DNA of 64,000 bases. Origin: a virus (lineage: Duplodnaviria > Caudoviricetes). A model generated the notes under the pieces. That model was not told the origin of the DNA. It ran no database searches and saw only the letters and a list, made by a program, of their open reading frames with translations. The translations under genes and the position numbers were made by a program. The stretch spans positions 98 to 64,097 of IMG/VR virus record IMGVR_UViG_3300046328_000530, one strand, 5' to 3'. Positions 1 to 64,000 of this stretch are shown piece by piece. Each line of letters opens with the position of its first letter. Positions within the stretch are counted from its first letter, which is position 1.

Positions 1-319
1 TTGTTACGTTTTTATGCCAGTAAATCATACCTCCTTTTAATCCGAAATAGTTAGCACCCCAAATGATTTGCTTTTTACTTACTCTAAAAAGTTGCTCAAA
101 ATATTCATCATTTGGTATTGCATTATCCCAATTAGTTTTTTTGTAGGTATTGATTTTAGCCATTGATGTTTTTTCGTGCCTATCACTATTTTTGCCATTG
201 TTTTTGTTATCAGCATCAATACCATAAGGTGGGTCAACTATGGCTAAATCATAGTATTTATCAGGTTTACTTTTCATAAACTCAATGCAGTCTATATTAT
301 AAAATTCAATTTTTGCCAT
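1..319 (-). CDS. DNA adenine/N4-cytosine methyltransferase (beta class), N-terminal part; runs off the window start and continues at 64000-63753
   Basis: Manual translation from ATG at 319: MAKIEFYNIDCIEFMKSKPDKYYDLAIVDPPYG...FRVSKKQIIWGANYF. Has the DPPY motif and is a close paralog of the 62922 MTase. Confidence 0.9.
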   Translation of the reverse strand, partial: MAKIEFYNIDCIEFMKSKPDKYYDLAIVDPPYGIDADNKNNGKNSDRHEKTSMAKINTYKKTNWDNAIPNDEYFEQLFRVSKKQIIWGANYFGLKGGMIYWHKNVT

Positions 320-374: not shown

Positions 375-409
375 CCCTACTGCCTATAACAGCGGTTTTG
401 TGCTATTTT
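375..409 (+). repeat. collapsed attC-like site (inverse core GCCTATAAC, 4 nt, core-like GTTTTGTGC)
   Basis: CCCTACTGCCTATAAC (375-390) is the exact reverse complement of GTTATAGGCAGTAGGG (63677-63692). 395-409 matches the reverse complement of 915-929 at 12/15. Confidence 0.7.
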
Positions 410-857: not shown

Positions 858-920
858 TTTTTTTTATTTTTAAATTGTTACTAAATAATTATTTGACACT
901 TGACGAAACCGAAAAAAACG

Positions 921-1050
921 GCACATAACAGGTGTTTGGCAAAAAAGCCCTTTTGTATTTCTATTTGACATTTGTACTAATTTTAAAAATTTGTAATTCT
1001 ATTGAATAGTCGGTTAGGGCTTCTTCGCCAAGCACCCGACCGTTATGGGC
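921..1050 (+). repeat. attC-like hairpin site, 130 bp
   Basis: GCACATAAC-A-GGTGTTTGGCAAAAAAGCCC ... GGGCTTCTTCGCCAAGCACC-CGACC-GTTATGGGC imperfect inverted repeat. Confidence 0.85.
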
Positions 1051-1069: not shown

Positions 1070-1843
1070 CTAATCGAAAAGCCCTTTTTGTTTTTCATAA
1101 TTTGTTATTAATATTTCTGTTCTACGATTTTTTAAGTTTTTCCTTTCGCCAATTATTATGACATTTAAACCTTGTTCTTTTGCTTGGTTAAGAATAAACT
1201 CATTATCAAATTCACTCATTGCAAATTTGCACCCAGTAGCTTGTAAGCAGTTAAATAAATCAATACTATCCTGTACAGTAAATGAATTGCTATAATTATC
1301 ATTCGTTCCTAAATAGGGTGGGTCGCAATAGAAAAAAGATTTTGCCTCGTCATTCCGTCCGTCCGTGTTAAATGTAAGTGTTTTAAAATATTTTCTAAAA
1401 TCATAATTAGTGAATTTACAATCATTAATCATTTCATATGTTTTGTCAATTACTTTAAAAAAAATGTTTTTGTTTTTTGTGAAGGACAAACTCATTCCAC
1501 TACTCACTACACCAATAGTAGTTAAATTGCTAAAAAATAAAAATCTTAAAGCTTTTTGTATAGGGTCTGTTTGTTCATTACTTTTGTAATATTCAAATAA
1601 ATCCGAATGAATAGGCATTAAATAAAACGCTTTTTCTAATTCTTCTTTTTGATTAATTACGACTTGAAATAAATTAAAAACTTCACTATCCAAATCATTA
1701 ACTACATTATATTTCGCTTTTGGTTTATTAAAAAACATACCACCAGCCCCAAAAAACGGCTCAAAATATATTTTATGGTCAGGAAAATATTTAATTATAT
1801 CCTGTGCTATTGCTTGTTTATTTCCTAATCTTCTTAATATCAT
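1070..1843 (-). CDS. Dam-like (D12 class) N6-adenine DNA methyltransferase
   Basis: RRLGNK, YFEPFFGAG, NDLD, YCDPPY and TEILITNY motifs; likely start MILRRLG at 1843. Confidence 0.92.
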   Translation of the reverse strand: MILRRLGNKQAIAQDIIKYFPDHKIYFEPFFGAGGMFFNKPKAKYNVVNDLDSEVFNLFQVVINQKEELEKAFYLMPIHSDLFEYYKSNEQTDPIQKALRFLFFSNLTTIGVVSSGMSLSFTKNKNIFFKVIDKTYEMINDCKFTNYDFRKYFKTLTFNTDGRNDEAKSFFYCDPPYLGTNDNYSNSFTVQDSIDLFNCLQATGCKFAMSEFDNEFILNQAKEQGLNVIIIGERKNLKNRRTEILITNYEKQKGLFD

Positions 1844-1875
1844 TTGACTAAATTTTGAGTACCCGAAAAGCAACT

Positions 1876-2010
1876 GCCCATAACAAGGGTTTTGCAAAAG
1901 CAGGGCATTAGTGGTTTATTGAACATTTTTACTACTATTAAACATTGTGCTAAATTTGAACTTTCGTACCTTGAAGCCCCACCTTCGGCAATACCCGACC
2001 CGTTAGCGGT
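1876..2010 (+). repeat. attC-like hairpin site
   Basis: GCCCATAAC-AA-GGGTTTTGCAAAAGCAGGGC ... GCCCCACCTTCGGCAATACCC-GACCC-GTTAGCGGT. Confidence 0.85.
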
Positions 2011-2383: not shown

Positions 2384-2418
2384 AATAATTCAAAACCCCT
2401 TGTGAATTAAACCGTACT

Positions 2419-2553
2419 ACCGCTAACAAGGGTTTGTAGCAATAGGGGCAGAAGTGCTTTAATTGAGCTGTGTACTTTTAATCAGCTTTTGTGGTAGGTT
2501 GAACAGTAGTGCTATAAATCCCCTATTGCTACAAGCCCAAACCGTTAGGCGAT
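2419..2553 (+). repeat. attC-like hairpin site
   Basis: ACCGCTAAC-AA-GGGTTTGTAGCAATAGGGG ... CCCCTATTGCTACAAGCCC-AAACC-GTTAGGCGAT. Confidence 0.85.
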
Positions 2554-3258: not shown

Positions 3259-3284
3259 ATTTCAAATTTACTGGTTAAAAAACT

Positions 3285-3367
3285 GCGGGTAACAACAGCT
3301 AACCAAAAGTGGGCGAACTTTTACTACTGTATAGCCCGCCTTCGGTTAGCTGCAAAACGTTATGCCT
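3285..3367 (+). repeat. short attC-like hairpin site (about 83 bp)
   Basis: GCGGGTAAC-AA-CAGCTAACCAAAAGTGGGC ... GCCCGCCTTCGGTTAGCTG-CAAAAC-GTTATGCCT. Confidence 0.8.
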
Positions 3368-3599
3368 TATACTTACCGAGAAAGACATGATTGTCTTCAA
3401 AATCCTTTTTCATCCTAAAATGCTTGTGTTCGTAATTGACATTCTGAAAGTGATGTTCGCCATTTTTAACTCCAATATACTTATAGTCAATAAATGAAGG
3501 TAATTGCCAATATCCATCTTTATAAAGGTGATAATGCTTGATTTTAACTTTATCCCCGACTTGTAAATCAGAAAAAGTACAAGGCATAACGTTTTGCAC
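3360..3599 (-). CDS. small hypothetical protein (cassette cargo)
   Basis: 79 aa ORF bounded by a 24-bp near-perfect inverted repeat (3351-3374 / 3575-3598); stop codon in the core. Confidence 0.6.
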   Translation of the reverse strand: MQNVMPCTFSDLQVGDKVKIKHYHLYKDGYWQLPSFIDYKYIGVKNGEHHFQNVNYEHKHFRMKKDFEDNHVFLGKYKA

Positions 3600-3623
3600 A
3601 ATACTACGAAAGTGCGTTAATTA
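3582..3623 (-). repeat. miniature attC-like site of opposite polarity
   Basis: AGGCATAAC-GTTTT-GCAC...GTGC-GTTAATT. The stop codon of the 3617 MTase lies in the GTTA core. Confidence 0.55.
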
Positions 3624-4222
3624 AACCATTTGAGTTCAGTAGTTCCAACAAAACCTTTTTCCCACACATACCAAGCATAAGCAACAGCACTTCCACCTCC
3701 AGCAACCATCTTTTCAAATTCAGCATTTTTTGCACACATCAGCCGAGAACTTGAAACATAAATTGTCTTTGGTGGGTTTGATAGGAATAGATTTTTTCTA
3801 CCTTTCCCTTCCATAAATTGTAATTTCAAAAACATTGCAACCTTGTTTCCTGCTGGTATTATCTGCAATGATTTTTCTACAAACTCCTGTGCATATTTGT
3901 AAGGCGGGTTTGTAATTATATCTCCATTCCATTTAAGGTTATCTATTCCTAAAAAATCTGTTTCTATTTCGCCAAATCCTCTGTCCATCAAATCGCTACT
4001 CCTTACATTATAGCCTTTGCTTTCAAATACCTTGCTTAAATGTCCTTCGCCACAAGCACACTCCCAAATATTTGGCGAAAAAGTTTCAAGTTCTAAAAGC
4101 AATTCGGCTGCTTTCGGTGTGGTTGCATAGTAATCTTCATTCTGCCTTTCTTTATCTGTATGGTTGCTTGCACCTAATGTTTTGTAGATGCTGTTGCTGT
4201 TTCCTGTCCAATCTTTTGTCAT
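3617..4222 (-). CDS. phage N6-adenine DNA methyltransferase (NPPY type)
   Basis: DYYATTP, IWECACGEGHL, DIITNPPY and YAWYVW motifs. Confidence 0.88.
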   Translation of the reverse strand: MTKDWTGNSNSIYKTLGASNHTDKERQNEDYYATTPKAAELLLELETFSPNIWECACGEGHLSKVFESKGYNVRSSDLMDRGFGEIETDFLGIDNLKWNGDIITNPPYKYAQEFVEKSLQIIPAGNKVAMFLKLQFMEGKGRKNLFLSNPPKTIYVSSSRLMCAKNAEFEKMVAGGGSAVAYAWYVWEKGFVGTTELKWFN

Positions 4223-15746: not shown

Positions 15747-15886
15747 GCTCCTAACGTTTCGCAGATTTGCGATGGGCGGGATTTAGAAAACGAATTTATC
15801 AACTTAAAACAAAAATTTATATGGAACACGAAACATCATTAAACAACGAAAAACATCGCCTAACAGCAGATTTGCTATTAGGCGAT
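15747..15886 (-). repeat. attC-like site of minus polarity with an internally inverted right arm
   Basis: GCTCCTAAC-GTTTC-GCAGATTTGCGATGGGCG ... CGCC[TAACAGCAGATTTGCTATTA]GGCGAT. Confidence 0.7.
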
Positions 15887-16525
15887 GTTTTTCTCCCACT
15901 TCTCAAAAAATTTGCATCAAATTATGATATGAGAGAATGGATGGCAACCCCTTTCAATGTAGGAAATAGAACGGTTGCGACAAATGGCTATTGCTTATTA
16001 TCAACTCCTTTTCAAGAAGGGTTTAATGATAGAAGCGAAAAAACAAAAACAGTTTATCCTATGGATCATAAGATAAACAAACCTATTCCAGTTGATGAAT
16101 TAAAGCAAAAATTAAAAGAATTTCCTTTAGTGGATTGCTTTGATGAAATTGAAACAACGTGCGATGCTTGTAATGGCGATGGAGAGGTAGAATTTGAGTT
16201 TTATCATAGTGGAAAAACCTATGAAATGGAACACGATTGCCCTGTTTGCGATGGGCAAGGAGTAACAAATACACAATCAAAAACACCAAACGGTAAAAAG
16301 GAACTTGACTACAACAAATTCTTTCAAATTGGTAAGTGCATTTTCAATGTTGCAAGAGTAGAAGAATTGATTTATGTCGCTGACTATTTAAAATCCGATG
16401 TTGTAAATATTGTAAACCAAACGGAGAAAAACAGAGCTTCTTTATTTACAATAAAAGATGTCGAAATGTTGGTAATGCCTATGATGTGTGATGATGAACG
16501 GAATGTCGCTCAAAATATCGCCTAA
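15821..16525 (+). CDS. beta-clamp-like phage protein with inserted CxxCxGxG zinc finger (cassette cargo)
   Basis: VATNGYCL and terminal LVMPM resemble DnaN motifs; CDACNGDG and CPVCDGQG. The start lies inside the repeat and the stop inside the CCTAAC core. Confidence 0.55.
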   Translation: MEHETSLNNEKHRLTADLLLGDVFLPLLKKFASNYDMREWMATPFNVGNRTVATNGYCLLSTPFQEGFNDRSEKTKTVYPMDHKINKPIPVDELKQKLKEFPLVDCFDEIETTCDACNGDGEVEFEFYHSGKTYEMEHDCPVCDGQGVTNTQSKTPNGKKELDYNKFFQIGKCIFNVARVEELIYVADYLKSDVVNIVNQTEKNRASLFTIKDVEMLVMPMMCDDERNVAQNIA

Positions 16526-16675: not shown

Positions 16676-16812
16676 GGCTTATAACAGCGGTTTTAAGAAA
16701 TGGCGGGTTTAGTGATTAATTTAAACATTGTGTGTACTTTTGTGTTTTGGCTTTACCGAAAGTTTTGGCTTGTAAATCCGCAACTTCTTAAAGCCACGAT
16801 ACGTTATATGCC
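16676..16812 (+). repeat. attC-like hairpin site
   Basis: GGCTTATAAC-AGC-GGTTTTAAGAAATGGCGGGTTT ... AAATCCGCAACTTCTTAAAGCC-ACGATAC-GTTATATGCC. Confidence 0.85.
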
Positions 16813-16926: not shown

Positions 16927-18747
16927 ATGGCTAACGAAAGCAAAACAGAATTATTAGTTTATGACCACTTCAAGAAATTTGAAGACAAAATAACTATTGA
17001 ACCTAAAAAGTCAAGCAATCCTGCTATTGACAAACTTCTGCAAAATGCTTCCAAAAAAGGAAATTTTAAAGGATACCCTGAATATATTATATCATTTAAT
17101 GAATATCCTGACTTATTAATAGTTATAGAATGTAAAGCACATAATATAAAACACCAAAGCAATACTCCTAAATTTGACAAATATGCGGATTATGCTGTAG
17201 ATGGGGCATTACTTTACGCTTCATTTTTACAAAAAGAGTTTAATGTAATAGCAATTGGAATTAGCGGAGAAACAAAAAAAGATTTAAAAATTTCTCATTT
17301 TTTATTCCTAAAGGAACAAAAAAATTATACTACAATATTTGACGATAAACTTTTAGATATTGATAGTTATGTACAAGGCTTCTTAAAAAGTCCTGAAAAA
17401 TTTAAACAAGACTATGATAGTTTAATCAAGTACTCAAAAGAACTAAACGAAGAACTACAAAATAAAAAAGTAAAAGAAAATCAACGTAGTCTTTTAATAA
17501 GTGGTATTATGATAGCACTTGACAACAGAGTTTTTTCTAAAACATATAAAGAACATACAACACCTAAAGACCTTGCAGACAATTTAGTTACTACTGTAAT
17601 TACTCAATTGAAAAATGCTAAAATTGGAGTGAGTAAACTTGAAAATTTGGAAGTTGCTTATTCATTCATTAAAGTTCACAGTGCATTAGCAAATGAAAAT
17701 GGTGTTTTAGTAAATCTTATTAAAAATATTGATGAAAAGGTAAACAGTTTTATCCGTTCTCATAAATACTTTGACGTATTATCTGAATTTTACATTGAAT
17801 TTTTAAGAAAATCAAATAGCGATAAAGGTTTAGGAATTGTGTTAACACCACACCATATCACGGATTTATTCAACGCAATTGCAGGTACAAATAAAGAAAG
17901 TATAGTTTTTGATAACTGTACAGGAACTTCAGGGTTTCTTGTAAGTGCAATGAGAGCAATGTTTAAAGATGCAAAAGGCGACATTACAAGAGAAGATAAT
18001 ATCAAACAAAAACAACTTATAGGAATTGAAGAACAATCAGATATTTATGCTTTGGCTTGTAGCAATATGTATTTGCAAGGAGATGGAAAAAGCAATTTAA
18101 TTTATGGTAGTTGTTTTGAAGATTTACATATTAAAAAAGTAAAAACTTTTAATCCAAATATTGGTTTTCTAAATCCACCATACAAAGCAAATAAAAAGAA
18201 AGACACAGAAGAATTAGAATTTGTATTGAATAATTTAGAATGTTTAGTGCCTAACGGCACTTGCATTGCAATTATTCCAATGCAGTGTGCTTTAGCTCAA
18301 AAAGGCAAAATACTTGAACTAAAGAAAAAAATACTTTCTAAACATACATTAGAAGCAGTAATGAGTATGCCAGATGAATTATTTTTTAATTCAAACGTTG
18401 GAGTAGTTTCTTGTATTATGGTTTTTACAGCTCACAAAGTACACCCGACAAACAAAGAAACATATTTTGGTTATTGGAAAGATGACGGATTTGTAAAACG
18501 TAAAATAAAAGGGCGTTTTGACGCTTTAAATAAGTGGCAAGGAGTTAAAGAAAAATGGATAGAAAGTTATATCAATAAAAAATCTATTGCAGGAATGAGT
18601 GTAATGAAGTCTATTACTGCAAATGATGAATGGTGTGCAGAAGCATATATGGAAACGGATTACAATTCATTGAATGAAATTGATTTTATAAAAACTATCA
18701 AAGATTTTGTATTTACAAACGAACTATACATTAAAAAATGGAATTAG
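16927..18747 (+). CDS. BcgI-like type IIB/IIG restriction-modification fused endonuclease-methyltransferase subunit
   Basis: N-terminal YPE...IECK nuclease motif, LTPHHI, DNCTGTSGFL and FLNPPY; own -7 box TAACTTTG at 16892. Confidence 0.88.
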   Translation: MANESKTELLVYDHFKKFEDKITIEPKKSSNPAIDKLLQNASKKGNFKGYPEYIISFNEYPDLLIVIECKAHNIKHQSNTPKFDKYADYAVDGALLYASFLQKEFNVIAIGISGETKKDLKISHFLFLKEQKNYTTIFDDKLLDIDSYVQGFLKSPEKFKQDYDSLIKYSKELNEELQNKKVKENQRSLLISGIMIALDNRVFSKTYKEHTTPKDLADNLVTTVITQLKNAKIGVSKLENLEVAYSFIKVHSALANENGVLVNLIKNIDEKVNSFIRSHKYFDVLSEFYIEFLRKSNSDKGLGIVLTPHHITDLFNAIAGTNKESIVFDNCTGTSGFLVSAMRAMFKDAKGDITREDNIKQKQLIGIEEQSDIYALACSNMYLQGDGKSNLIYGSCFEDLHIKKVKTFNPNIGFLNPPYKANKKKDTEELEFVLNNLECLVPNGTCIAIIPMQCALAQKGKILELKKKILSKHTLEAVMSMPDELFFNSNVGVVSCIMVFTAHKVHPTNKETYFGYWKDDGFVKRKIKGRFDALNKWQGVKEKWIESYINKKSIAGMSVMKSITANDEWCAEAYMETDYNSLNEIDFIKTIKDFVFTNELYIKKWN

Positions 18748-19700
18748 TCCCAATACATAAACTATTTACTGTAAAGTATGGTGTTAATCTTGAATTAGTA
18801 CACCTTGAGCAATGTTCAAAAGACGATGAAAACTCTATAAATTTTGTTTCACGTACTGAAAACAATAATGGAGTTTCGGCTTTTGTTATAAAATCAGAAG
18901 ATATAACACCCAATCCAAAACATACGATTTCAGTTGCAGGCGGTGGTTCTGTACTTTCTTCCTTTTACCAAGAAGAAGAATATTATAGTGGAAGAGATAT
19001 ATATTATTTAAAACCACTAACTAATTTCTCAAAATTAGAGATGTTATTTTATGCTTTTTGCCTAACAAAAAATAAATACAAATACAATTACGGCAGACAA
19101 GCAAATAAAACTTTAAAAGATATTTTAGTTCCCTCTAAAATGCCAAAATCTTTTGAAAAATTAGACATAAACGAACTTAATACTTTAAATAGAAAAAGCA
19201 CTTTAAATTCTAATATTGAACTTAATCATAATAATTGGGGGTGGTTTTCATTGAGCGACCCAAGATTATTTAAAATATCGGGAACAAAAACAACACCTTT
19301 ATTAGAACTTGAAGAATTTGGAAAAGGAGAAAAACCATTTGTAACAACACAAGCCAGTAATAATGGGATAGGTGGCTTTTTTGACTTCTCAACAGAAACA
19401 GGAAATGTTTTGACAGTTGATAGTGCTGTTATTGGCTATTGTTCATATCAACCTTTAGACTTTTCAGCAAGCGACCACGTTGAAAAATTAACACCCACTT
19501 TTAGACTAAATAAATACATAGCATTGTTTATAGCGACAATTATCAATAAAGAACAATATCGTTATAATTATGGACGTAAAGCAAGTCAAACAAGACTAAA
19601 AAGAGCTAACATAAAACTTCCTGTAAAGCAAAACGGACAACCCGACTTTGAATATATGGAGAACTATATTAAAACATTACCATATTCAAGCACAATATAA
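18738..19700 (+). CDS. restriction-modification specificity (S) subunit with two TRDs
   Basis: Duplicated NNG(V/I) and YNYGR(Q/K)A motifs and PDFEYMENYIK; overlaps the upstream gene. Confidence 0.88.
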   Translation: MELVPIHKLFTVKYGVNLELVHLEQCSKDDENSINFVSRTENNNGVSAFVIKSEDITPNPKHTISVAGGGSVLSSFYQEEEYYSGRDIYYLKPLTNFSKLEMLFYAFCLTKNKYKYNYGRQANKTLKDILVPSKMPKSFEKLDINELNTLNRKSTLNSNIELNHNNWGWFSLSDPRLFKISGTKTTPLLELEEFGKGEKPFVTTQASNNGIGGFFDFSTETGNVLTVDSAVIGYCSYQPLDFSASDHVEKLTPTFRLNKYIALFIATIINKEQYRYNYGRKASQTRLKRANIKLPVKQNGQPDFEYMENYIKTLPYSSTI

Positions 19701-19718: not shown

Positions 19719-19856
19719 GGCATATAACAGGGGTTTTGCAAAAAAGCGGGTTCAGTGCTAAATTGAACATTTGGAATTCTAATGAACATTTGTGCTAAAC
19801 CGAACATTTGTGCTTTCTAATCCGCTTCTTCGCAAAGCCACGATACGTTATATGCC
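19719..19856 (+). repeat. attC-like hairpin site
   Basis: GGCATATAAC-AGG-GGTTTTGCAAAAAAGCGG ... CCGCTTCTTCGCAAAGCC-ACGATAC-GTTATATGCC. Confidence 0.85.
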
Positions 19857-20733: not shown

Positions 20734-20756
20734 GCATATACTCGAACGTTAGGAGA
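20734..20756 (+). repeat. collapsed attC-like site closing the second array
   Basis: GCATATAC-TCGAAC-GTTAGGAG; the left half matches core GTTATATGC at 19847. Confidence 0.55.
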
Positions 20757-33000: not shown

Positions 33001-36000
33001 TTATATCATTCCCATCAGCCTTTATCGCTTTGTTAACCTTATCCCGTGAGGCATTGTCTTTATTGGAGAAAAAATCCTTTGTCACCTTCTCAATTTCCCA
33101 CCCAACACGCCCAATTTTCCTAAGTATTCCAAACGCAACACCCCTCGCCTTCTGCCTTTGCATTTCACCAGATATTTTCCGCACCTTGCTAAGTTGGTCT
33201 TCTAACTTATCGGAATTTTCAAACTCTTTGGTAATACGATATTCCAAATCATTTTCCAAAGAGATTATCGCCAAAGATTCACTATCGTAATTCACCTTGT
33301 TTTTGGCAATATAATCAAGCATTTCCTCTACATAGTTATCCCCATACTCTTGTTTTGCTGCCTCAACTATAGCTACACCGTGGGCAAACGCCGCATCTAA
33401 GTTCGCTTTGAAGTATTCCTTTTCGTACTGTGTTTGTTCTCTGCCTGATTCCCTCTCGATATTGTTGAGCGTTTCTGCAACCTCTGTGCTTTCAATGCCC
33501 AGCTTTAACTTGTCGGTAAATGTATTTTCAATACCTCTACTATGCACCTCTTCAACCTTATACTTATGTTCATCCATAAAATCATCGCCAAAGTCATCTC
33601 TCATTGTGCTAAGGACATCAACAAGCTTTACAATCCCTTCTTTTGCATACGATTCTATCACTTTAGCAAGTTTTGCTGTGAATGTTGCCACATCTGCTCC
33701 GATTGATAGTGTGCCACGGGATTTGTTCACGAATGATAACATGTCGCTTACTGCGGCCTTTCGTTCTGCTGTGGCTGCTTGTAGTCTTGTGTCTTTTTTC
33801 CCTGAATCGGTTCTTTGTCCTTCTTTGGAAGATCGTACACTCCTGCCGAGTCCATCAGGATCACCAGTTGTAACCTTTTCTGTTTCGGTAGATACTGGCT
33901 GTACATCAGCCTTAGTTTCTTTAAATGGAGTTCCTTGTTCATTTTTTATAGCTTCTTTAGGTACTCCAAAGTTTTCAATTTGCTGTTTTGTTTCCACATC
34001 CCCTACACCACCACTACCTGCTTTGGGTGTTTCAGGGTTAACCCCTTTTACTTCGTTGTAAAAATTAGTAAAGGCTTGTTTTGGCGATAAATCTCCGTTA
34101 GGGTTGTATTTCTCACTAAAGGCATCGGCTACGATTTGTGATACACCTTTAACATTTTGCGATGCACTAAACGCTTCATCTACATTGGTTTTTGAGTTAA
34201 CAATATCTACAAATGGCTTAAATGTAGTTTCAACAGATTTTGTGGGTGCTTCTTTGGTGGGTAGGGATTGTTCTACTGCTTTATTGTATTCAGTTTTTAT
34301 CTCGGAAAGTGTTTCTTTATGCTTTGATATTATTTCGTTGTAATCATCAACTGCTCTTTGATAACCTTTTTTAAGTTTGCCATTATCAAGATGCGACATT
34401 TTACCAAACCCTTCAATGTTTTTTATACCCCTTTCTGCATTGGCTATTTTTGATTCTAATTCTTTTTTGTCAAAATCATAATCCCTTTTTAAAATTCCTC
34501 CTCTGGTTAATTTGCCATCAGGATCAATAACTTTTCCGTCCAATATTGCTTGTTCGTATGCTTTTTTACCTTCGGCTTTTTTGTTCTTCATTGCTTGAAA
34601 GGCATCGTCTTGTTCTTTAATAGAACGATTGGATTGACGTTTCCCCTCTAACCCTCTGCCGCCTAATAATTGTGCTTGGAAAGATGTGTCATAATCATCA
34701 GGATAACCATTTTCCTTTGCAAATTGTGTAAAGTTTTGATTTTTTGGTTCAAATACACCACTACCTGCTTCCTTATCATTTACATCTTCATACCCGTATT
34801 TTTTAGGTTCTACTTTATCAGTTTCAACATTTTGATCACCAGTTGTAACCTTTTCTGTTTCGGTAGATACTGGCTGTACATCAGCCTTAGTTTCTTTAAA
34901 TGGAGTTCCTTGTTCATTTTTATCATTTACTTCTTCATGGAACATCTCTGCTAATTTTACAACATGCTCTGTACTATCTACATCTTGGGTACCTGATATA
35001 GTAGACTGTTTATTTTCTTTAGTTCTACCATCCAATAATTTCTGAATCATATCAGCAACCTCATTGTTTTTTATCAATAAACTCTGCCCATTTATTTTCT
35101 GATTCAATACATCATCAACCAATTTTAATTTTAAAGACTTCAAATAATCTACATCATCAACACTTAAATTTTGCTTATTACCGCCTGATTCTACGGTTAT
35201 ATCAGGATTTTCAATTGATGGCAGATTAGCAGCAGATTTATTTTCTGGCTTAATACCATCTAACTCCTTGTTAATACCATCCAATTTAATTTGTAATTGT
35301 GCTTTAGTTTCAGGAGATATATTTGGATTATTGATTATCTGTTCAATTTTCTCTGATTCAGTCACCAAATCATCTACATTAGCCTTTTGTACATCAGTTA
35401 AACTGTTGTAAACCTTACTATCTTCATCAATATGGTCGTTAATTTTCTCGGTCATGTTACCAACCTCGCTCATTAATACTTCTTTCTCCTGTGAACTGAT
35501 ATTAGGATTGTCAATTTCAGAAGTTAGTCTATTAATAGCTTCACTATCTTTGGTAATGGTTTGTTTTGTTTTAGGATTAACTATTTTAGAGATCCCCTTA
35601 GTAAGACTTGCTATACCTCCTGTCATACCTAAGCTTATCAATGCTGCATCGCCTACACCTTCAAGGAAATCTCTTTCTGGGTCGACTCCAGACCATTTAT
35701 CTGTAGCATTTTTCCAAACCTGATTAGCAACTTCTCCTGACATATCTCCTAATACAGCAGAACCCACGAATGCTTTTTTAAATGATTTATCCAAATAACC
35801 CTGAATACCCTTTTTAACGACTTCTTCTGCCTCTTTTTCTGCTCCTTTTATAAATAATTTTCTGCCTTGATCATACAACATGCTAGTACCTACCAATTCA
35901 GAACCTGCTTCTCCTATCCCAGTTAAAACAGCATTTATATATAGAGTATTCTTGTTAATGTTAGGGTTTGATTCCTTTAAATCCTCATAAGTTGTTCCGG

Positions 36001-36856
36001 TTGTTCCTAAGCCCATACCAAATAAAGAAACTCCTTTACTTACTCCTGCTCCTCTTGATGTCAATAGTCCTATCATAACAGGTAAACTCTCAGTAATGCC
36101 AAGAGCCATTAGTTTACCAGCATCAGCATAGTTTTCATCTTGTAATGCTTTTGTTATACCTCCATCATAACCTTTTAAGGCTAAAGCTTGGTTTGCTTTA
36201 GCACGTTCCTTATACATGGAACTTAGGTAGTTATTTGGACTTAAGGGGTTGTATTCTTCCGGTAGTCCTATAGTCTCTTCAGCTAATTTACCAAGATATT
36301 CAGCATCAATTCTTGGTTGATTTCCTGGAGAATTTAACCTCGATGTTACTAAATCAACGAAAGATGAAGGAATTGATGTTACCATTCTTCCTAACTGATC
36401 TATTCCAGAAGCTAATTTTAATTGAAAGTCAGTACCAAATGAATTCCTTTTGATTTTTTGAGCTTCGTACTCTTTGGCTTGAGCTTGCATTATATTATCA
36501 GAAGCACCTTCCCCTTGCGAAGCATCATAGGCACCAGTTGCCTTTTTTAGCCTTGCTGATAGATTTTGCCTTTCTATTGTTTTTTTAACCTGACCAATAG
36601 AATAGTCTATCTTTCCCTTATTAGTTAATACTGTTGGTATTTCAGGATTATTCCCACCGTATTGGAAACCTTGGTCGTTCAGCCAACCAATTGAAGATGG
36701 CTTTGAGGTACTCTTTAAAACGGGAGTAAAATTTTTTTTTTTTACGCCTAAATCACCGAACGCATCTACTTCATCATATTTTTCAATAGTGACAGTTTTG
36801 TTTTTATTCTTTATAGCCTTGAGGCTGGTCATAAATGGATTTTCTTCCTCTGCCAT
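30020..36856 (-). CDS. large internal virion (ejection) protein, 2278 aa
   Basis: Size, helical K/E/A-rich composition and third position in a 230/541/2278-aa triplet after the tail genes. Confidence 0.7.
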   Translation of the reverse strand: MAEEENPFMTSLKAIKNKNKTVTIEKYDEVDAFGDLGVKKKNFTPVLKSTSKPSSIGWLNDQGFQYGGNNPEIPTVLTNKGKIDYSIGQVKKTIERQNLSARLKKATGAYDASQGEGASDNIMQAQAKEYEAQKIKRNSFGTDFQLKLASGIDQLGRMVTSIPSSFVDLVTSRLNSPGNQPRIDAEYLGKLAEETIGLPEEYNPLSPNNYLSSMYKERAKANQALALKGYDGGITKALQDENYADAGKLMALGITESLPVMIGLLTSRGAGVSKGVSLFGMGLGTTGTTYEDLKESNPNINKNTLYINAVLTGIGEAGSELVGTSMLYDQGRKLFIKGAEKEAEEVVKKGIQGYLDKSFKKAFVGSAVLGDMSGEVANQVWKNATDKWSGVDPERDFLEGVGDAALISLGMTGGIASLTKGISKIVNPKTKQTITKDSEAINRLTSEIDNPNISSQEKEVLMSEVGNMTEKINDHIDEDSKVYNSLTDVQKANVDDLVTESEKIEQIINNPNISPETKAQLQIKLDGINKELDGIKPENKSAANLPSIENPDITVESGGNKQNLSVDDVDYLKSLKLKLVDDVLNQKINGQSLLIKNNEVADMIQKLLDGRTKENKQSTISGTQDVDSTEHVVKLAEMFHEEVNDKNEQGTPFKETKADVQPVSTETEKVTTGDQNVETDKVEPKKYGYEDVNDKEAGSGVFEPKNQNFTQFAKENGYPDDYDTSFQAQLLGGRGLEGKRQSNRSIKEQDDAFQAMKNKKAEGKKAYEQAILDGKVIDPDGKLTRGGILKRDYDFDKKELESKIANAERGIKNIEGFGKMSHLDNGKLKKGYQRAVDDYNEIISKHKETLSEIKTEYNKAVEQSLPTKEAPTKSVETTFKPFVDIVNSKTNVDEAFSASQNVKGVSQIVADAFSEKYNPNGDLSPKQAFTNFYNEVKGVNPETPKAGSGGVGDVETKQQIENFGVPKEAIKNEQGTPFKETKADVQPVSTETEKVTTGDPDGLGRSVRSSKEGQRTDSGKKDTRLQAATAERKAAVSDMLSFVNKSRGTLSIGADVATFTAKLAKVIESYAKEGIVKLVDVLSTMRDDFGDDFMDEHKYKVEEVHSRGIENTFTDKLKLGIESTEVAETLNNIERESGREQTQYEKEYFKANLDAAFAHGVAIVEAAKQEYGDNYVEEMLDYIAKNKVNYDSESLAIISLENDLEYRITKEFENSDKLEDQLSKVRKISGEMQRQKARGVAFGILRKIGRVGWEIEKVTKDFFSNKDNASRDKVNKAIKADGNDINKQAEENEQKNAESSIIDLKDVDVNEKQINKSKAKSIANYLRSLKSGRDPRAVLGSNNISAILDFFRDGALETVATTVELGGSVADGIKKAVKNIQAEQRKKNLKATDFDVLEKALTDDILGNKKEKSALTPAQRLEKAKESIRERMVDIKQQIADKKVELEARGIKFEKDAEYKSLVRQLKHINEQAQPFLTDKSKDLLDERKQKAIVTKLENEIADLDEQITQNSKKAKSVDKNPATSPLINDLKALKKVKQDLLNDIDPDVKEVVKSALIEAGYGREITVTTKEGKEKRTVLDWKELSTAQDISNVVDKVLNKQGYSQVQKDRMKVAIQTELNRIRTEFIEKNIQSELDRRNMPKSTESKTYAKRLAELYNYKLFDKYPNQYDYLLNSALGMSLSDQKLFFQAKSLAKSLAEVYQKLDPATGKKYSEFAVSEIISQINKQIENVLTKAVRGKASTVLNFMNILQAYIGGNLRNKLTGVRNITENILSGFTERNIQNLHNFMTNGLKGGKYDTKELRKSRKQDALKLIEDTILNAGGEYGGTGSPFVSKNMIMDSVNEWVDKGKYSKINHLITSIITVRYGLEGADSYNKIRLTEYQFQENMIRVLTDRSNPNKMSHEDARAYVSEKLTGQSKSDALEKAKNIIQEINNSAGKEMLKNNPQNVNRIANNLIKDALVNGQAITPDMIKASFNAAYKSAGRSIGHEANNFGTQFLTWANQRMDGEIRKAVKEEQWSKAAALQALQIINKNFINPFVGGGLNWTVLGLQKTGVPAHYLVDYNAYEKVHPIDVTTPDGIKELDRTLTTKANHNKDNARTLTGVVVTATIIGALSAWVDDEEKKKLRKFMDNHPAFEKAFTKLAHPSMVAYMAYGDKEGKFIAYIRALLNQRADTFNQKEMAFKATFGTLPKGNDAAGVLGNILGDKAGIPYLPTPFIRDVKELINEVKGVKAAKKSYKTKGFWNGFFKGGLTDVVGLRPKESPDKSSKKRRKRKD
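33859..34921. repeat. 88-bp exact direct repeat inside the large virion gene
   Basis: 33859-33946 equals 34834-34921 and encodes KNEQGTPFKETKADVQPVSTETEKVTTGD. Confidence 0.95.
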
Positions 36857-49504: not shown

Positions 49505-50671
49505 TTACTTACCGTTTGCAACTCGCTCTAAAAACGACTGGTATTGTTCTTGTTTATTAACATCTACCTGTGGTTCAATCTGTGGCGCAAGGCCAGATCT
49601 GTTTTCGTATTTATTGACAATTCTTTCTGTTACAACTGACTCTGCATGAGTAAATATACTCTTTGCAATTTTATCAAAGTTCTCAGCTAAGTAATTAGCT
49701 TTGGCATACATAGCAAAGCTATTTACGCCATCTTGCGTAATTGGCTCATTATTTAACATGAAATAATTCTCCGCCATTTCATGAACCTTAGCTTTATACT
49801 CTTCTGCAAAGGGCATGTCAAGCATCACAGCTTCATCCCCTTCTTTACCATTCAAATTTACATTGCCCAATCCTTGTATGGAGTTGGCAATCTTTGGAGC
49901 TTCCTGCTTAACTAAGTTTTTGTGTTGCTCTGTATCTGCTATTTGTTGTAACCTGTTTTTCTCCTGAATTTCTTTTTCGGGATTTTCAACAGTTGTTAAT
50001 TGTGTTTTATACTTATTTAATGCCTCAAAATCCGATTTTGAACTCACGCGAAGTTCATCTTCAAGGATTTCTCGTTCATCTGTTCCTTCATCAAAATCAT
50101 CCAAAGGATATTCTCTGTCTACCTTCTTTCTTGCTACTACCTCGCTATACCCATCCACAAGGACAAGTTTGGCTACCTTAGCATCAAGAGGATTCAGATC
50201 GCTTAACTCTCCGGCTTCATTTAATTTAACAAAGGCTTTTAATTGATCTGCACTTGCACCCGCTTGAGCGAGTTCATTTAATTCTTTTACAAATCCATTA
50301 GCGTATGTTATCTGATTTTTTTCGAGATCAGCCTTTTGTTGCGCCAATGATTCGTATTCCGAAATCTTTGGAAGTGCTTGTTTAAAGCTGTCTACATCTT
50401 TAAACATACCGCCCGTCTCTGCTTCAATCCATTTGTTGTAATCCGGCGCTGCTACTACTGGTGCAGCAGTCGTTTCCTCTGTTTTGATTGCAGGAGCTAA
50501 TTCCTCTTGTATTTCAGTTGTTGTTTCTATTACCACATCAGCCATCGCAGCCTGTGGTGTTTCTACTGATTGTTCGCTTACCTCTTGTGCAGCCATCGCA
50601 GCAGCCTCTTGTGGTTGTGAACCGAATTGCTTTGCAGCATACTCTAAAATTTCTTCTGTATCTGTTGCCAT
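49505..50671 (-). CDS. capsid scaffolding protein
   Basis: Acidic, helical, between portal and capsid. Confidence 0.7.
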   Translation of the reverse strand: MATDTEEILEYAAKQFGSQPQEAAAMAAQEVSEQSVETPQAAMADVVIETTTEIQEELAPAIKTEETTAAPVVAAPDYNKWIEAETGGMFKDVDSFKQALPKISEYESLAQQKADLEKNQITYANGFVKELNELAQAGASADQLKAFVKLNEAGELSDLNPLDAKVAKLVLVDGYSEVVARKKVDREYPLDDFDEGTDEREILEDELRVSSKSDFEALNKYKTQLTTVENPEKEIQEKNRLQQIADTEQHKNLVKQEAPKIANSIQGLGNVNLNGKEGDEAVMLDMPFAEEYKAKVHEMAENYFMLNNEPITQDGVNSFAMYAKANYLAENFDKIAKSIFTHAESVVTERIVNKYENRSGLAPQIEPQVDVNKQEQYQSFLERVANGK

Positions 50672-50747
50672 AAAATTTAATTCTGTTCAAATATAGATAT
50701 AAAAAATTTAATTCTGTTCAAATATAGATATAAAAAATTTAATTCTG
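50672..50747. repeat. 31-bp tandem repeat (about 2.5 copies) containing a promoter box
   Basis: AAAATTTAATTCTGTTCAAATATAGATATAA at 50672 and 50703, partial at 50734. Confidence 0.9.
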
Positions 50748-50773: not shown

Positions 50774-53284
50774 TTATTCTAATATCATTTGTTCTTGCTG
50801 ATCCATATTAGGTTGTTCAGGACTTTCCTGTTGCGCTTCCTGTTGCATTCCATCCTGTTGAGGTTGTGCTATTCCAGCAACAGTCTGGTTGTTCATTCCA
50901 ACAATTCCCTGTATAGATTGCGTGTCTGTACTTACTTCTCCTTCTTTTTTTGGAGCAAACAACAGTTCAAGCATTGCCTGATTTTGCTTTAGCAACTGGG
51001 AAACAAGTGTATTATTCATTTCTTGCTGTCCTTTTTGCTGCAATAACGCAGTATCAATTTGCCCTTTAGTTTGGGCTGAATCTTGCTGAACTTTAGCATT
51101 TGATGCAATATCGTCCTGCTTTGCTTTCCTGTTTGCAGCTATTTTCTTCTTCTCTATCTTAGCCATAATAAACATAGCCTCATCTATATTGCCACCCATT
51201 ATGCGATTATGAAGGTATAGCCACTCAGACGCTGTAAGCCCTTGCGATCCCTCTGTTTGAACACCTAATACCCTTTGATCCGCCAATTGCTGCATAATAG
51301 CTTGCTTCTCCTCCTGTGTTGCCGCTATCTTGAAATCTACATTATACTCTGCATTTGTAAAATCCCCACTTAATTCCAACACCTTCATATTATGGTTGCC
51401 AAGCGAGGAGTAAGCAACCTTAATTCCTTTTTTGTTTTTAGCTACAATCTGCCACTTCTTAACAATATCTGTAAATGCAGCACGGAATAAATAATGATAC
51501 GAATTAAACGTTGGCTGCAATGATGCATTAGCTGTTTGGAAAGCCAGCTGTGTTTGCCCAAGTCCTTGATACGGATTTTGCTGACCTCCATCTGCTCCAC
51601 CTTGCAATCCAAGAACTTCTCTTAACTCATTAACCTTTAGTGCCATCTCAGAACTGCACACAGACAACATTCCCGCCATCTTCGTTACATCCATGTAATC
51701 TATTGGCTTCTGTCCTCCTGCAAAATATAGCGGCTTACCGTTATCATCAAGCCCATTGTAATATAATATACCTCTTTCGATTAATCCTTGAACAATATCT
51801 TCTGGCTGTTGAAGTATTCCGTTTAGGAATACGTTTTCAAGCAAATCTTTTTGTATTGCCATTGCTGGAGCGGCTGGCAATGTAGCCCAAGCGTTCCTAT
51901 GCTTAAACATAATTAAATCAATGTCATCAACTATGGCAATAGCTCTCTCTACTAAGGAAGCGTTCCCTGTTTTAACAAAAAAATAATCTAATTTAGGTGT
52001 CTTGTTTCCGTCTGGGCCATAGTATACCACATCCTTACATATACCGCAATTGATTAGATACTCTGTTCCAATAATCCAATTTGCATAGTATTTTCTTATG
52101 GTGTTTTTCTGTACAACCTTATCGCCCTTCTTTTTGCTTTTATCATCTGGCTTATAATCAAAAGCAACCTCCTTAAACATCGTCCACCCTGTTGTATCAT
52201 TAACATTCTTTAGGTTTGTTTCTATATCTACACTAAGCCATTGCGCATCAAGCACAAGCACCTTTACCCGGCTAATCGGATCAAGGTCGTAATCTTGGTT
52301 GTACCCGTTTCGGTATGATGTATCATAGTAGTTTCCTTTCAGCAAAGTAGAGTATCCCAAATTCATCCACTCAAAACACTTAGCGATATACATTAATTCA
52401 GATGATTTCATTGATGGATTTTCTTTGCGTATATCCGCAATTGTCATCACCCTTATTTCTCCGGCTCTTGTTATATTCGCAAAATCATTTCTGTCAGAGA
52501 ATGGGATGATAGCCTTCTCCATATCTACCCTTCTTATTTTTGGAAGCTGTGTAGACTCTTCAATATATGTTTTCCACCCGGCCAACCCCTCCGGGTTGAT
52601 TATTAAGTCGTCAAATGTTGCATCTTGCAATACTTTGTAGTCAGAAACCTGCTTTGTCTTTAAACATGCAGCGTGAGCGGCTCGTTCCCATTCCAATGTA
52701 AATCCACCTGTTTCAAAATACATATCAACATCAGAATCGTTTTGCAATCCCAATTCTTCCGGATTTGGCTGAACATTAGGTTTAAACTTGGTTTTATTTA
52801 TAAACTCTTGCGTTCTTTCATCAAGAATAAACTTTAGCATTTCTTTTGTTTTTTCTCTGGCAGCTAAACTGTCATCATCAACACAATACAGCGAAACGTC
52901 ATATTCTTGAGGCATATTTTTAGACCTCATTACATCAAACATCTGCGGGAGTTTCATATATGTTTCCCATGAAACATTCATTTTTGTTACATGACCAACT
53001 CTGCCAGTTGTTTTGTCTTGCTTAGGTTTACCAAGTACAGAGTTTTTTAGTTTTGTACTTGGCTGCCTTCCGGTAGCGTACGCCTTTAGTTCAGCAAAAC
53101 TTCTTCTGTTTTCAAAATTAAATGGAATGGCACATGTATTTGAAGAATAATCTGCTGTCATAGCACGACAAACGGATAAGTAATACTCTTTCTCCCTTTT
53201 TAACTTCGGGTCTACCTTATCATTGGGATATGGGTAATTTAAACGCTTTCCTGAAAACTCTTCTATTTTTAGATATTTAGCCAT
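50774..53284 (-). CDS. portal protein
   Basis: 836 aa with a Q-rich C-terminal barrel, upstream of scaffold and capsid; podovirus-type size. Confidence 0.8.
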   Translation of the reverse strand: MAKYLKIEEFSGKRLNYPYPNDKVDPKLKREKEYYLSVCRAMTADYSSNTCAIPFNFENRRSFAELKAYATGRQPSTKLKNSVLGKPKQDKTTGRVGHVTKMNVSWETYMKLPQMFDVMRSKNMPQEYDVSLYCVDDDSLAAREKTKEMLKFILDERTQEFINKTKFKPNVQPNPEELGLQNDSDVDMYFETGGFTLEWERAAHAACLKTKQVSDYKVLQDATFDDLIINPEGLAGWKTYIEESTQLPKIRRVDMEKAIIPFSDRNDFANITRAGEIRVMTIADIRKENPSMKSSELMYIAKCFEWMNLGYSTLLKGNYYDTSYRNGYNQDYDLDPISRVKVLVLDAQWLSVDIETNLKNVNDTTGWTMFKEVAFDYKPDDKSKKKGDKVVQKNTIRKYYANWIIGTEYLINCGICKDVVYYGPDGNKTPKLDYFFVKTGNASLVERAIAIVDDIDLIMFKHRNAWATLPAAPAMAIQKDLLENVFLNGILQQPEDIVQGLIERGILYYNGLDDNGKPLYFAGGQKPIDYMDVTKMAGMLSVCSSEMALKVNELREVLGLQGGADGGQQNPYQGLGQTQLAFQTANASLQPTFNSYHYLFRAAFTDIVKKWQIVAKNKKGIKVAYSSLGNHNMKVLELSGDFTNAEYNVDFKIAATQEEKQAIMQQLADQRVLGVQTEGSQGLTASEWLYLHNRIMGGNIDEAMFIMAKIEKKKIAANRKAKQDDIASNAKVQQDSAQTKGQIDTALLQQKGQQEMNNTLVSQLLKQNQAMLELLFAPKKEGEVSTDTQSIQGIVGMNNQTVAGIAQPQQDGMQQEAQQESPEQPNMDQQEQMILE

Positions 53285-62891: not shown

Positions 62892-62920
62892 GTTGCGTAT
62901 ATCTATGAGTTATACGCAAC
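62892..62920 (+). other. attI-like / tyrosine-recombinase simple site (11-7-11 dyad)
   Basis: GTTGCGTATAT-CTATGAG-TTATACGCAAC; contains the GTTATAC core that begins the first cassette. Confidence 0.55.
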
Positions 62921-62921
62921 C

Positions 62922-63617
62922 CTAAAAGAGCCGCTGCTGTCTTTTGTGCAAATTGAAAGCGTTTACACCCGATTGAAAATATTCTGAATCAATTTCACAA
63001 ATATCTAAGTCGAAGCCTTCAATTTCACACGCTATTGCACTTGTCATACTTCCGCCGTGAGTGTCTAATATTTTCATTCCAGTTTCGGCATATTTCAAAC
63101 AATACCTATATAAATCTATTGGTTTTTGACAAATGTGTCTCCTGTCAGTCATTACAGTTCTTTTTCTAAACATTCGGGTTGCCGTTGTAAACGAAGTCCA
63201 TGCAATTTCGCAATCTGAAAAATAGCTTTCCCCGTTTTTTTTATCCCAAACAATAAAACAACTTGTAGGCTTTTCAATTAAATCAATAAAGTAATTACCC
63301 CCCCAAATGATTTGCTTTTTACTTACTCTAAAAAGTTCATTAAAATACTCCTTACTTGGTCGTTCAAAGTCCCATTGTGTTTCGCTGGCAATGCTCCCTT
63401 TATTTTCTTTTCTTTGCCCCCAGTTTCCAGCTTCGGTTTTTACTAATCCAATCCCATACGGAGGGTCAACAATTGCCAAATCAAAACATTTGTCAGGCTT
63501 CGACTTCATAAACTCAATGCAATCCACATTGAAAAAATTAATAGAAGGGCAGCGGCTAACACTCGCTATATGCAATGCGGGGTTACTGCTAATTTGTAAG
63601 TTCATATCTTCGTTCAT
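62922..63617 (-). CDS. DNA methyltransferase (beta class); start codon lies inside the attC-like repeat
   Basis: IVDPPYG, HICQKP, LDTHGGS; no Met between the core and the first conserved strand. Confidence 0.9.
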   Translation of the reverse strand: MNEDMNLQISSNPALHIASVSRCPSINFFNVDCIEFMKSKPDKCFDLAIVDPPYGIGLVKTEAGNWGQRKENKGSIASETQWDFERPSKEYFNELFRVSKKQIIWGGNYFIDLIEKPTSCFIVWDKKNGESYFSDCEIAWTSFTTATRMFRKRTVMTDRRHICQKPIDLYRYCLKYAETGMKILDTHGGSMTSAIACEIEGFDLDICEIDSEYFQSGVNAFNLHKRQQRLF

Positions 63618-63685
63618 TCTGTATCGTATTTTGATAGTTTTGTACTTGTAAATCCCGCACTGCACATAGCGGAAACGTTATAGGC
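63552..63685 (+). repeat. attC-like hairpin site
   Basis: GCGGCTAAC-ACT-CGCTATATGCAATGCGGG ... CCCGCACTGCACATAGCG-GAAAC-GTTATAGGC. Confidence 0.85.
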
Positions 63686-63752
63686 AGTAGGGCAGACGTT
63701 CTTCGTTTCAACATTTGTGGAAGAAAAAAAAGAAAAAAAGCCCACCGCACTT

Positions 63753-64000
63753 TTAAAACATTTGTAATTGTTGTTTATACTCATTGTATTTTTTTACTCC
63801 GTTATTAAAATAATCAGTATCTATTTCGCATATATCCAAATCAAAACCTTCTTTATCACAAGCAATAGCAATACTCATACTGCCTCCGTGTGTGTCTAAA
63901 ATCTTCATCCCTTTTTCAGCGTATTTCTCTAAAACTTTGCGATAAAGTAAAGTTGGTTTTTGCGTTGGATGTATACGTTCTTCTTTGTCTTTCATATTGT
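63753..64000 (-). CDS. DNA methyltransferase, C-terminal part (N-terminus at 319-1)
   Basis: HPTQKP, LDTHGGS; frame open to the window end. Confidence 0.9.
   Translation of the reverse strand, partial: NMKDKEERIHPTQKPTLLYRKVLEKYAEKGMKILDTHGGSMSIAIACDKEGFDLDICEIDTDYFNNGVKKYNEYKQQLQMF

Follow-up and report, generated by a model that had tools for sequence, protein, structure and literature searches.

The stretch of DNA analysed here, hereafter the window, comprises 64,000 of the 64,097 bases of the virus record IMGVR_UViG_3300046328_000530 and has a GC content of 35%. Near its right-hand end, on the minus strand, a DNA methyltransferase gene (the 62922 methyltransferase, named after its last position) lies directly behind a long hairpin, further copies of which stand between other genes of the window; this text concerns the nature of that hairpin element and its part in the translation of the genes that follow it. 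The record is classed as linear; its ends overlap by 7 nucleotides (nt; ATATTGT), and the record is therefore circular or circularly permuted, with the joining of the ends restoring the reading frame of a second, paralogous methyltransferase. The genes (terminase, virion proteins and endolysin, together with recombination proteins of Erf, Gam, NinB and RuvC type) are typical of tailed phages, and the closest DNA matches of the window are phages of Olleya, Cellulophaga, Flavobacterium and Polaribacter. The phage is one of Flavobacteria-type bacteria.

Sixteen copies of the element (six window copies and ten found in viral contigs) were aligned on the gene-sense strand (alignment A3), and all share the same order of parts: TAAC, a stem of 15-18 bp, a loop of about 70 nt and GTTA. 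The two terminal cores are invariant in 16/16 copies, the full RYYYAAC/GTTRRRY consensus is only loosely matched, and mean column identity is 67%. Stem pairing is kept in 98.2% of cells and compensatory changes occur in 14 of 22 pairs, a degree of covariation that none of 500 shuffles reached, while slid controls gave 40-51%. The spacers between core and stem are unequal (5-6 nt vs 2-3 nt), and a G.T pair, conserved in 15 of the 16 copies, lies on the strand that corresponds to the bottom strand in bacterial arrays. A covariance model built from the aligned elements (R1) returned 122 matches at E <= 0.01 in the window and 97 loci; the 97 matches of at least 41.6 bits, from 36 sources (viral loci and the window), were kept, and 25 weaker ones, opposite-strand echoes among them, were dropped. 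Scores are strand-specific, exceeding 100 bits on one strand vs about 25 on the other. The window holds eight matches of at least 41.6 bits, the methyltransferase element and seven further copies, with lengths of 83-139 nt that lie within the approximate 57-141 nt range of integron attC sites, and the repeat motif occurs 11 times vs 1.7 expected.

The open reading frame (ORF) of the 62922 methyltransferase extends upstream to 63665 (62922-63665, minus strand), where it reads ...MNEDMNLQISSNPALHIASVSRCPSINFFNVDC. Its paralog starts MAKIEFYNIDC, which reading across the circular join upheld; at the corresponding junction the present gene has ...SVSRCPSINFFNVDC instead. The first-pass annotation of this DNA had stated that the gene has no Met between the repeat core and its first conserved strand, and this stands: there is no ATG between core and conserved strand, and the only in-frame ATGs ahead of that strand are those at 63617 and 63605, both within the hairpin loop. 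Beyond them, just two ATG, GTG or TTG codons occur up to the end of the conserved strand: a TTG in the stem, 15 nt ahead of the GTT core, and the GTG at +33 that encodes the V of NVDC; the next ATG, at +51, falls within the conserved IEFMKS. Loop and 3' arm would encode the 19 residues (from ATG 63617) or 15 residues (from ATG 63605) that precede the V of the GTT core, and core and flank read VSRCP.

This arrangement recurs. Junctions of the type GTTAGCCGCTGCCCT were compared in 11 cases, namely the window and 10 loci from 9 contigs, comprising about eight different hairpin variants whose stems differ and covary and whose ATG is 42, 57 or 60 nt away from the core. In 11/11 junctions frame 0 reads without a stop from a loop ATG; frame 1 closes 1-12 codons from the core in all 11, and frame 2 closes within 7-20 codons in eight and stays open for 43-53 codons in the other three. 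In one variant (L119) the 5' arm has apparently been lost, as judged by eye and not by folding, and the ORF is kept. Predicted N-termini in this methyltransferase family include MNEANNLQTPTQPPLVIADVSRCP, MNEAEMIQQPTNPALNIASVSRCP, MMNNVENPQLTIPQVSRCP and MIELPQSPTLPIHGVSRCP. More distant homologs, which have no element, begin MVNFFNVDC or MINLYHIDC, and from this the ancestral ATG can be placed immediately ahead of the I of SINFF. A protein search blind to the hairpin found orthologs of the methyltransferase in nine other contigs, all of them behind the same hairpin type, with upstream neighbours that differ right up to TAAC; the hairpin type is associated with its downstream gene. Among the junctions listed, about 33 nt after the GTT core (GTTAGCCGCTGCCCTTCTATTAATTTTTTCAATGT; 63526-63560 on the minus strand, loci L112-L121) are invariant, the first 23 nt of them being fixed by the search pattern itself, and synonymous divergence elsewhere in the gene is about 0.8-1.3, which suggests a nucleotide-level constraint beyond coding.

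Starts inside the loop extend well beyond this one family. Enough downstream sequence for a survey was available at 96 of the 97 elements, and at 33 of the 96 the downstream ORF has its first in-frame ATG in the loop; a further 8 belong neither to this class nor to that of ORFs with an ATG of their own, which is taken up below. Numbered from the core, 30 of the 33 in-loop starts fall between -39 and -81, and in the three whose first ATG lies further out (-104, -104 and -174) another in-frame ATG stands at -53 or -54. They amount to 30 different ORFs; the 25 that were scanned comprise 13 N6_N4 methyltransferases from several subfamilies, the DnaJ-type zinc-finger protein of the window and 11 ORFs that match no family. 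In the methyltransferases among them the core is followed after 5-8 residues by the first conserved strand, with no Met in between, as in VSGSTFVNADC, LLGAVPSVVYNEDC, VLPAVLPFVNEVTC and CCTQPFLSVRNVDV. In-loop starts occur in each of the three frames relative to GTT, and the hairpin-derived N-terminal peptide would run for roughly 12-28 residues up to the core (14-20 in the family of the 62922 methyltransferase). Among unique contexts, ORFs without an ATG at -5..+110 were examined for an open loop ATG, which is present in the frame of the gene in 14/14 cases vs 1/28 for the other frames; the base rate of loop ATGs is 32/136, as counted in the frames not used by the gene where the ORF has an ATG of its own. 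As a control, bacterial arrays were read in their own gene direction and a loop ATG was reached by only 2 of 45 ORFs, as expected because the upstream hairpin there belongs to the neighbouring cassette. Cultured Polaribacter phage P12002S, in which R1 finds five elements, has two GenBank coding sequences that start at loop ATGs (_0053, a methyltransferase, and _0059), these starts being automatic annotation and not translation evidence. The zinc-finger gene of the window had also been proposed to start inside its repeat, and ATG 15821 does lie in the loop of a degenerate copy, a few nt from the model position of the methyltransferase ATG; relatives of this gene were sought and none was found, so that its in-loop start rests on one copy.

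The opposite end of the element is used for termination. The set surveyed comprises 81 unique upstream ORFs 60 codons or more in length; in 22 of them the stop codon is the TAA of TAAC, and in 20 it lies 12 nt before that position in the same frame (six of the latter being orthologs of the 62922 methyltransferase), with one to three ORFs at each of the neighbouring positions -10, -11, -13 and -14. This TAA closes the cassette as its last triplet, where crossover is presumed to occur (TAA|C), and the C-terminal triplets shared between proteins (NIA, NCA, NCR) derive from the box before it. The first-pass annotation had placed the stops of the 2545, 3360, 3617 and 16525 genes on this TAA; the stop survey bears it out for the first two and reading of the sequence for the last two. 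That two unrelated proteins, those of the 2545 and 16525 genes, both end NIA* was likewise correct and is due to 17 identical nt (AATATCGCCTAACGGTT). A third role, that of translational coupler, had been suggested from a repeat-born leader ahead of the Dam gene, and such a leader is present, as an ORF of 28 codons running from 1926 to 1840 (MFNKPLMPCFCKTLVMGSC...) whose TGA overlaps the Dam ATG at 1843 as ATGA. Across 34 unique leaders, close variants included, the frames not used by the gene were examined for stops within -6..+3 of its ATG; such stops occur in 20 of 32 frames that hold a loop or core ATG, vs 10 of 36 frames that hold none. These counts lend moderate support to short loop ORFs as translational couplers.

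Cassette orientation, taken as the strand of the flanking ORFs relative to the R1 model strand, separates phages from bacteria. In the viral set (loci L006-L100) sense and antisense ORFs number 69:7 downstream of the element and 69:6 upstream; in the bacterial set (genome loci L124-L203) they number 8:68 downstream and 15:55 upstream. Bacterial arrays have the usual order, gene and then attC, and the phage cassettes are inverted. The earlier statement that cargo genes run opposite to the site polarity, apart from a restriction-modification pair, is correct, in that the cassette genes of the window are all reversed relative to bacterial arrays except the type I methylase and specificity (M+S) pair at 16927-19700, which has the usual integron orientation. 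The bacterial counterparts are numerous. A 20-letter pattern from the Dam-associated copy is present in 26 viral-contig stretches, as near-identical copies in which conservation ends exactly at both cores, and in 91 stretches of Bacteroidota genome assemblies, where R1 gave 97 matches at E <= 0.0001; 93 matches lie in 63 loci of bacterial genomes. In the one bacterial genome examined, that of Flavobacterium cheonanense (L223, 3324-7856), four genes stand behind a tyrosine recombinase, and an element trails each of them. This recombinase passes the NF040815 profile, "tyrosine recombinase/integron integrase" (226.5 bits, cut-off 220), and stays below TIGR02249 (204.5 bits, cut-off 265); the array is a chromosomal integron-like array. 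Recombinase and cassettes share one strand, and profile region 177-237, which contains the IntI-specific insertion, is unmatched in the recombinase.

Other features are likewise those of integrons. In four window cassettes the core behind one hairpin and the inverse core behind the next gene are reverse-complementary over 10-14 nt; for the RNA-ligase cassette the complementarity of the flanks fails beyond GTTA. Arrays reach five elements per locus of about 4-5.6 kb. Taken together, the elements appear to be integron attC-type sites of a family widespread in Bacteroidota, and with at least two sites and no integrase the arrays of the window are clusters of attC sites lacking integrase (CALINs); we infer that the sites would be recombined by an integron-type integrase. 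Rfam at gathering thresholds gave no match in the window, and R1 found no match in the corresponding loci of Olleya phage Harreka_1 and Cellulophaga phage phi10:1, which have a related Dam gene. Two other kinds of repeat were rejected: invertible promoters, on account of imperfect arms that covary and the lack of a nearby invertase, and a MITE-like insertion (miniature inverted-repeat transposable element), because the ends of one element are non-complementary beyond GTTA and it is the ends flanking a gene that are complementary.

The cargo of the window cassettes (1-4222, 16927-20665 and 62922-64000; Table 1) consists mostly of DNA methyltransferases, at least six in addition to the type I M+S pair, for which no R subunit was found among the ORFs scanned, with an RNA-ligase-like gene and a DUF6283 gene besides; it looks like an anti-restriction toolkit.

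Table 1. Elements, partial sites and genes of the window (bits are scores of covariance model R1).
Feature	Position	Strand	Basis and remarks
Predicted attC-type hairpin upstream of the 62922 methyltransferase	63551..63684 (134 nt)	-	R1 111.1 bits, stem covariation; TAAC 63680-63677, 5' stem arm, loop, 3' stem arm, GTTA 63560-63557
Two in-frame loop ATGs, proposed starts	63617-63615, 63605-63603	-	sequence reading
N6_N4-type DNA methyltransferase, ORF from loop ATG	62922..63617	-	PF01555, phrog_23224
Array end	62892..62924	-	stop TAG 62924-62922, 9-nt box, TAAC 62912-62909
Paralogous methyltransferase, C-terminal part	63753..64000	-	crosses circular join into 1-319
Paralogous methyltransferase, N-terminal part (MAKIEFYNIDC...)	1..319	-	own ATG at 319, 71 nt after GTT core
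Half site, 3' stem arm and GTTATAGGCAGTAG only	377..403	-	sequence comparison
Element upstream of ORF 408-857	920..1049	-	R1 91.7 bits
Dam-type methyltransferase	1070..1843	-	PF02086; own ATG 41 nt after core
28-codon loop ORF	1840..1926	-	loop ATG, stem arm, core, then ATGA overlap with Dam start
Element upstream of Dam gene	1875..2009	-	R1 107.2 bits
Element upstream of DUF6283 gene	2418..2551	-	R1 104.3 bits
Short element	3284..3366	-	R1 49.4 bits; TAAC contains stop of ORF 3360-3587
Small ORF	3360..3587	-	ATG from GTTATG core, stop the TAA of CATAAC core
Methyltransferase	3617..4222	-	phrog_799; stop the TAA of ATTAAC
Degenerate element	15748..15886	+	R1 49.4 bits; ATG 15821 in loop
DnaJ-type zinc-finger protein gene	15821..16525	+	predicted loop start; stop the TAA of CGCCTAAC (16523-16525)
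Element left of type I M+S pair	16676..16810	-	R1 103.7 bits
Type I methylase (M) and specificity (S) genes	16927..19700	+	PF02384, PF01420
Element directly after S gene	19719..19854	-	R1 113.4 bits

At the array end no full element follows the methyltransferase, and the stop of the gene fits the -12 pattern. The half site at 377..403 is reverse-complementary over 14 nt to CTACTGCCTATAAC at 63690-63677. TAAC 2547-2544, within the element upstream of the DUF6283 gene, contains the stop of the RNA-ligase-like gene 2545-3258. The small ORF 3360..3587 is flanked by a 24-nt inverted repeat, and the ATTAAC stop of the methyltransferase 3617..4222 lies at a mini hairpin (about 3585-3625, judged by eye).

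From these observations, all of them comparative, a joint reading can be assembled that we consider probable: the arrays would consist of inverted attC-type cassettes, about one third of which start translation at a loop ATG, with stops at the TAA of the crossover. Read in the direction of the gene, a cassette would run C, hairpin, GTT core, short leader, ORF, ...TAA, and because phage cassettes are inverted, each gene would be preceded on its mRNA, at the 5' end, by the bottom-strand hairpin of its own attC. The 62922 methyltransferase would have lost its own ATG and leader, and we infer that its translation begins at a loop ATG, 63617 or 63605, in a single-stranded, A-rich stretch, from which the frame would continue across 3' stem arm and GTT core (...PALHIASVSRCPS) and on into the enzyme. 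An A-rich context is a feature of translation initiation in Bacteroidota. The same design would apply to about one third of phage cassettes, the remainder retaining a separate ATG some 37-41 nt past the core, and many cassettes would terminate on the TAA at the presumed crossover TAA|C. The earlier proposal of the repeat as a plug-in translation start or coupler survives in part. The site does seem to supply start codon and N-terminal peptide (at 11/11 junctions and 33/96 elements) as well as stops (22/81). It is not a plug-in for an incoming gene, since inverted cassettes hold hairpin, start codon and terminal TAA within the same moving unit, so that the site belongs to the gene's own cassette and not to its neighbour; 55 of 96 elements precede a gene that has its own ATG, and the role of coupler is no more than moderately supported (20/32 vs 10/36 frames, from leaders that are not independent).

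Several points weigh against in-loop starts as a general design and against the loop ATG of the 62922 methyltransferase in particular. Firstly, the 55 elements just mentioned outnumber those with in-loop starts, the ATGs of their ORFs having a mode of +37 to +41 from the core. Secondly, the counts include related copies: 10 of the 33 in-loop starts are orthologs of one methyltransferase, Dam leaders (ATGA) and MEVNK-methyltransferase leaders (TAAAATG) dominate the coupler set, which is why support for coupling is only moderate, and the GenBank starts in P12002S are automatic. Thirdly, the loop ATG of the Dam type lies inside a repeated loop motif (CAAATGTTCAA, identified by eye) and could be kept for another reason, and a stem of 15-18 bp straight after the start codon might hinder rather than help translation. 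Finally, codons nearer the enzyme are available as starts. Many copies could start instead at the stem-arm TTG located 15 nt ahead of the core, GTG codons lie near the first strand in some class B genes, and the ATT codon for the I of SINFF may serve as a start. Bacteroidota are not known to rely on Shine-Dalgarno sites, and start choice is hence hard to predict. In a rival explanation the 62922 methyltransferase starts at one of these codons (the TTG of the 3' arm at -15, the ATT of SINFF or the GTG of NVDC) and the open loop frame is incidental; the TTG at -15 and the GTG at +33, both present in the window copy, speak for it, but we regard it as unlikely. The TTG is absent in L039, L040, L021 and L038, and in L039, L040 and L038 loop ATG and open frame persist without it; a GTG start at NVDC would delete the conserved first strand; an incidental frame fits poorly with a frame 0 that is open in every junction when frame 1 closes in all of them and frame 2 in eight of the 11; and a TTG start would still fall within the repeat.

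A different challenge concerns the nature of the element. T4-type phages have PeSL (promoter-early stem-loop) modules, promoter/terminator stem-loops that recombine by homology, and these resemble the present elements as repeated stem-loops between small genes, in plastic regions, linked to both shuffling and expression. We know of no PeSLs with AAC/GTT cores, with a bacterial integron counterpart or with a coding use. The elements might, along such lines, be regulatory RNA hairpins or repeats for homologous recombination rather than integron sites, their start and stop codons reflecting tight packing. A search for tyrosine recombinases (PF00589) gave no match in the 64,097-nt record, and none was found in five other array-bearing contigs searched; the phage encodes its own recombination proteins of Erf, Gam, NinB and RuvC type, and conserved G.U pairs on the mRNA-sense strand also fit RNA structure. 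We nevertheless hold this explanation to be improbable, given that the same family forms an array beside an integrase-like recombinase in a bacterial chromosome, that conservation ends exactly at TAAC and GTTA, that each cassette is flanked by integron-like inverted repeats of 10-14 nt, and that IntI1 recombined attC sites of a related Polaribacter phage (PMC9892861). Even if it were correct, the reading of translation from the loop would be unchanged.

That the 62922 gene is a 5'-truncated dead cassette, its upstream open frame being left over from hairpin constraints, is hardly credible: it lacks the leader and the first codons (MAK) of its paralog and has HICQKP in place of the HPTQKP motif, but the ratio of non-synonymous to synonymous divergence (dN/dS) is 0.05-0.35 in 36/36 pairs among nine orthologs and 0.05 against a 93%-identical ortholog at a dS of 0.82, the junction is kept in nine other contigs and the DPPY motif is intact. 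The enzyme body being under purifying selection, the gene must, as judged from these ratios, be expressed.

Integron cassettes are generally viewed as promoterless and dependent on their platform for expression, and attC as a recombination signal that, if anything, hinders translation. Against this background we put forward a wider proposition, to which we would give an even chance: that in Bacteroidota phages cassettes are systematically inverted, that the attC hairpin has become a built-in 5' expression module, with the start codon in its loop, the N-terminal peptide from stem and core and the stop at the crossover itself, and that each cassette is a self-sufficient translation unit at whatever position it is inserted, a principle absent from bacterial integrons. 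The same site type, read backwards, seems to serve as translation start and as a portion of the coding sequence for anti-restriction genes exchanged between phages, mostly DNA methyltransferases. If true, this would explain how tightly packed, shuffled phage cassettes are expressed without an integron promoter, and a DNA recombination structure and a protein N-terminus would be evolving under joint constraint. Gene calling would also be affected, such genes being easily annotated as truncated or with wrong starts. The cultured phage P12002S offers a direct test system.

Elements of this picture have precedents. CALINs with methyltransferase cargo have been described in phage genomes, including that of a virulent Polaribacter phage (Qi et al. 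2023, Front Microbiol, PMC9892861), and the arrays of the window resemble them as attC hairpin arrays without integrase that carry DNA methyltransferases. 'Typical' and 'divergent' orientations are distinguished in that paper, the portions of which considered here describe neither systematic inversion nor start and stop codons inside attC. The present sequence family, with the Dam-associated element as query, gave no blastn match among 50,697 phage records; R1 finds it in P12002S and, no more than weakly, in P12002L (a single match of 19.4 bits). In class 1 integrons, a short ORF across the attI1 recombination site (ORF-11 or ORF-18) recruits ribosomes, ends on a stop provided by the cassette's GTTRRRY core and, for a cassette with no initiation region of its own, provides translational coupling (review PMC8876359). 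As described there, ORF-11/ORF-18 lies in attI, acts on the first cassette only, depends on a Shine-Dalgarno site and yields a separate peptide, whereas the start in phages would lie in the attC loop, belong to the cassette and, in one third of cases, be fused to the protein. The same review reports short ORFs inside attC, which by termination-reinitiation relieve the stem-loop barrier in polycistronic cassette mRNA, and fusion proteins that arise through loss of parts of attC. In the portion of the review considered, these cases have the usual orientation and the fusions come about by loss of the site; in the phages the site is intact and structured and would be read through in reverse as coding sequence. 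Full-text searches found no paper on start codons inside attC loops or on systematic inversion of phage cassettes, the supplements of PMC9892861, which possibly list orientations, lying outside their coverage.

A number of further observations concern the elements and their surroundings. The loops contain a TAnnTTTG motif (e.g. 1935-1975, plus strand) on the strand opposite the phage genes in 33 of 92 viral elements, vs one on the gene strand, and on that same strand in 20 of 91 bacterial elements vs 3; it would face the next cassette in bacterial arrays and would be antisense in the phage. We take it to be the Bacteroidota -7 promoter motif (consensus TTTG / TAnnTTTG). A sense-strand Bacteroidota promoter in the loop was rejected, TAnnTTTG being on the opposite strand. 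Two half sites (CTCCTAAC and a 5' stem arm ending GGGCGGGA), at 15748-15782 (plus strand) and 20727-20760 (minus strand), face one another across about 5 kb, a stretch that contains two full elements and the M+S pair; behind each half site there is a gene with its ATG at the expected loop position (15821 and 20665). At 62892-62924 the inverse-core box and 62901-62892 form a 10-bp hairpin followed by a T run, terminator-like and just before the replication genes; relatives of the replication protein neighbouring the array were sought in viral contigs and none was found.

At 2401-2600 contig depth is 4-8 times that of the neighbouring sequence in freshwater runs X5, X6 and X8, and many contigs break or diverge at elements; such an excess is as expected for a repeat common to many genomes in freshwater samples. 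When contigs of four freshwater runs were compared with positions 1-6000, the pieces broke at elements and no clean joint of cassette excision was found; there was one short joint, from 1928 back to 968, with 34-37 nt on the shorter side. Elsewhere in the window, a perfect direct repeat of 88 nt (33859-33946 and 34834-34921, 975 nt apart) lies within an ORF of 2278 residues (30020-36856), and an AT-rich unit of 31 nt forms two perfect tandem copies at 50672-50733, between ORFs 49505-50671 and 50774-53284.

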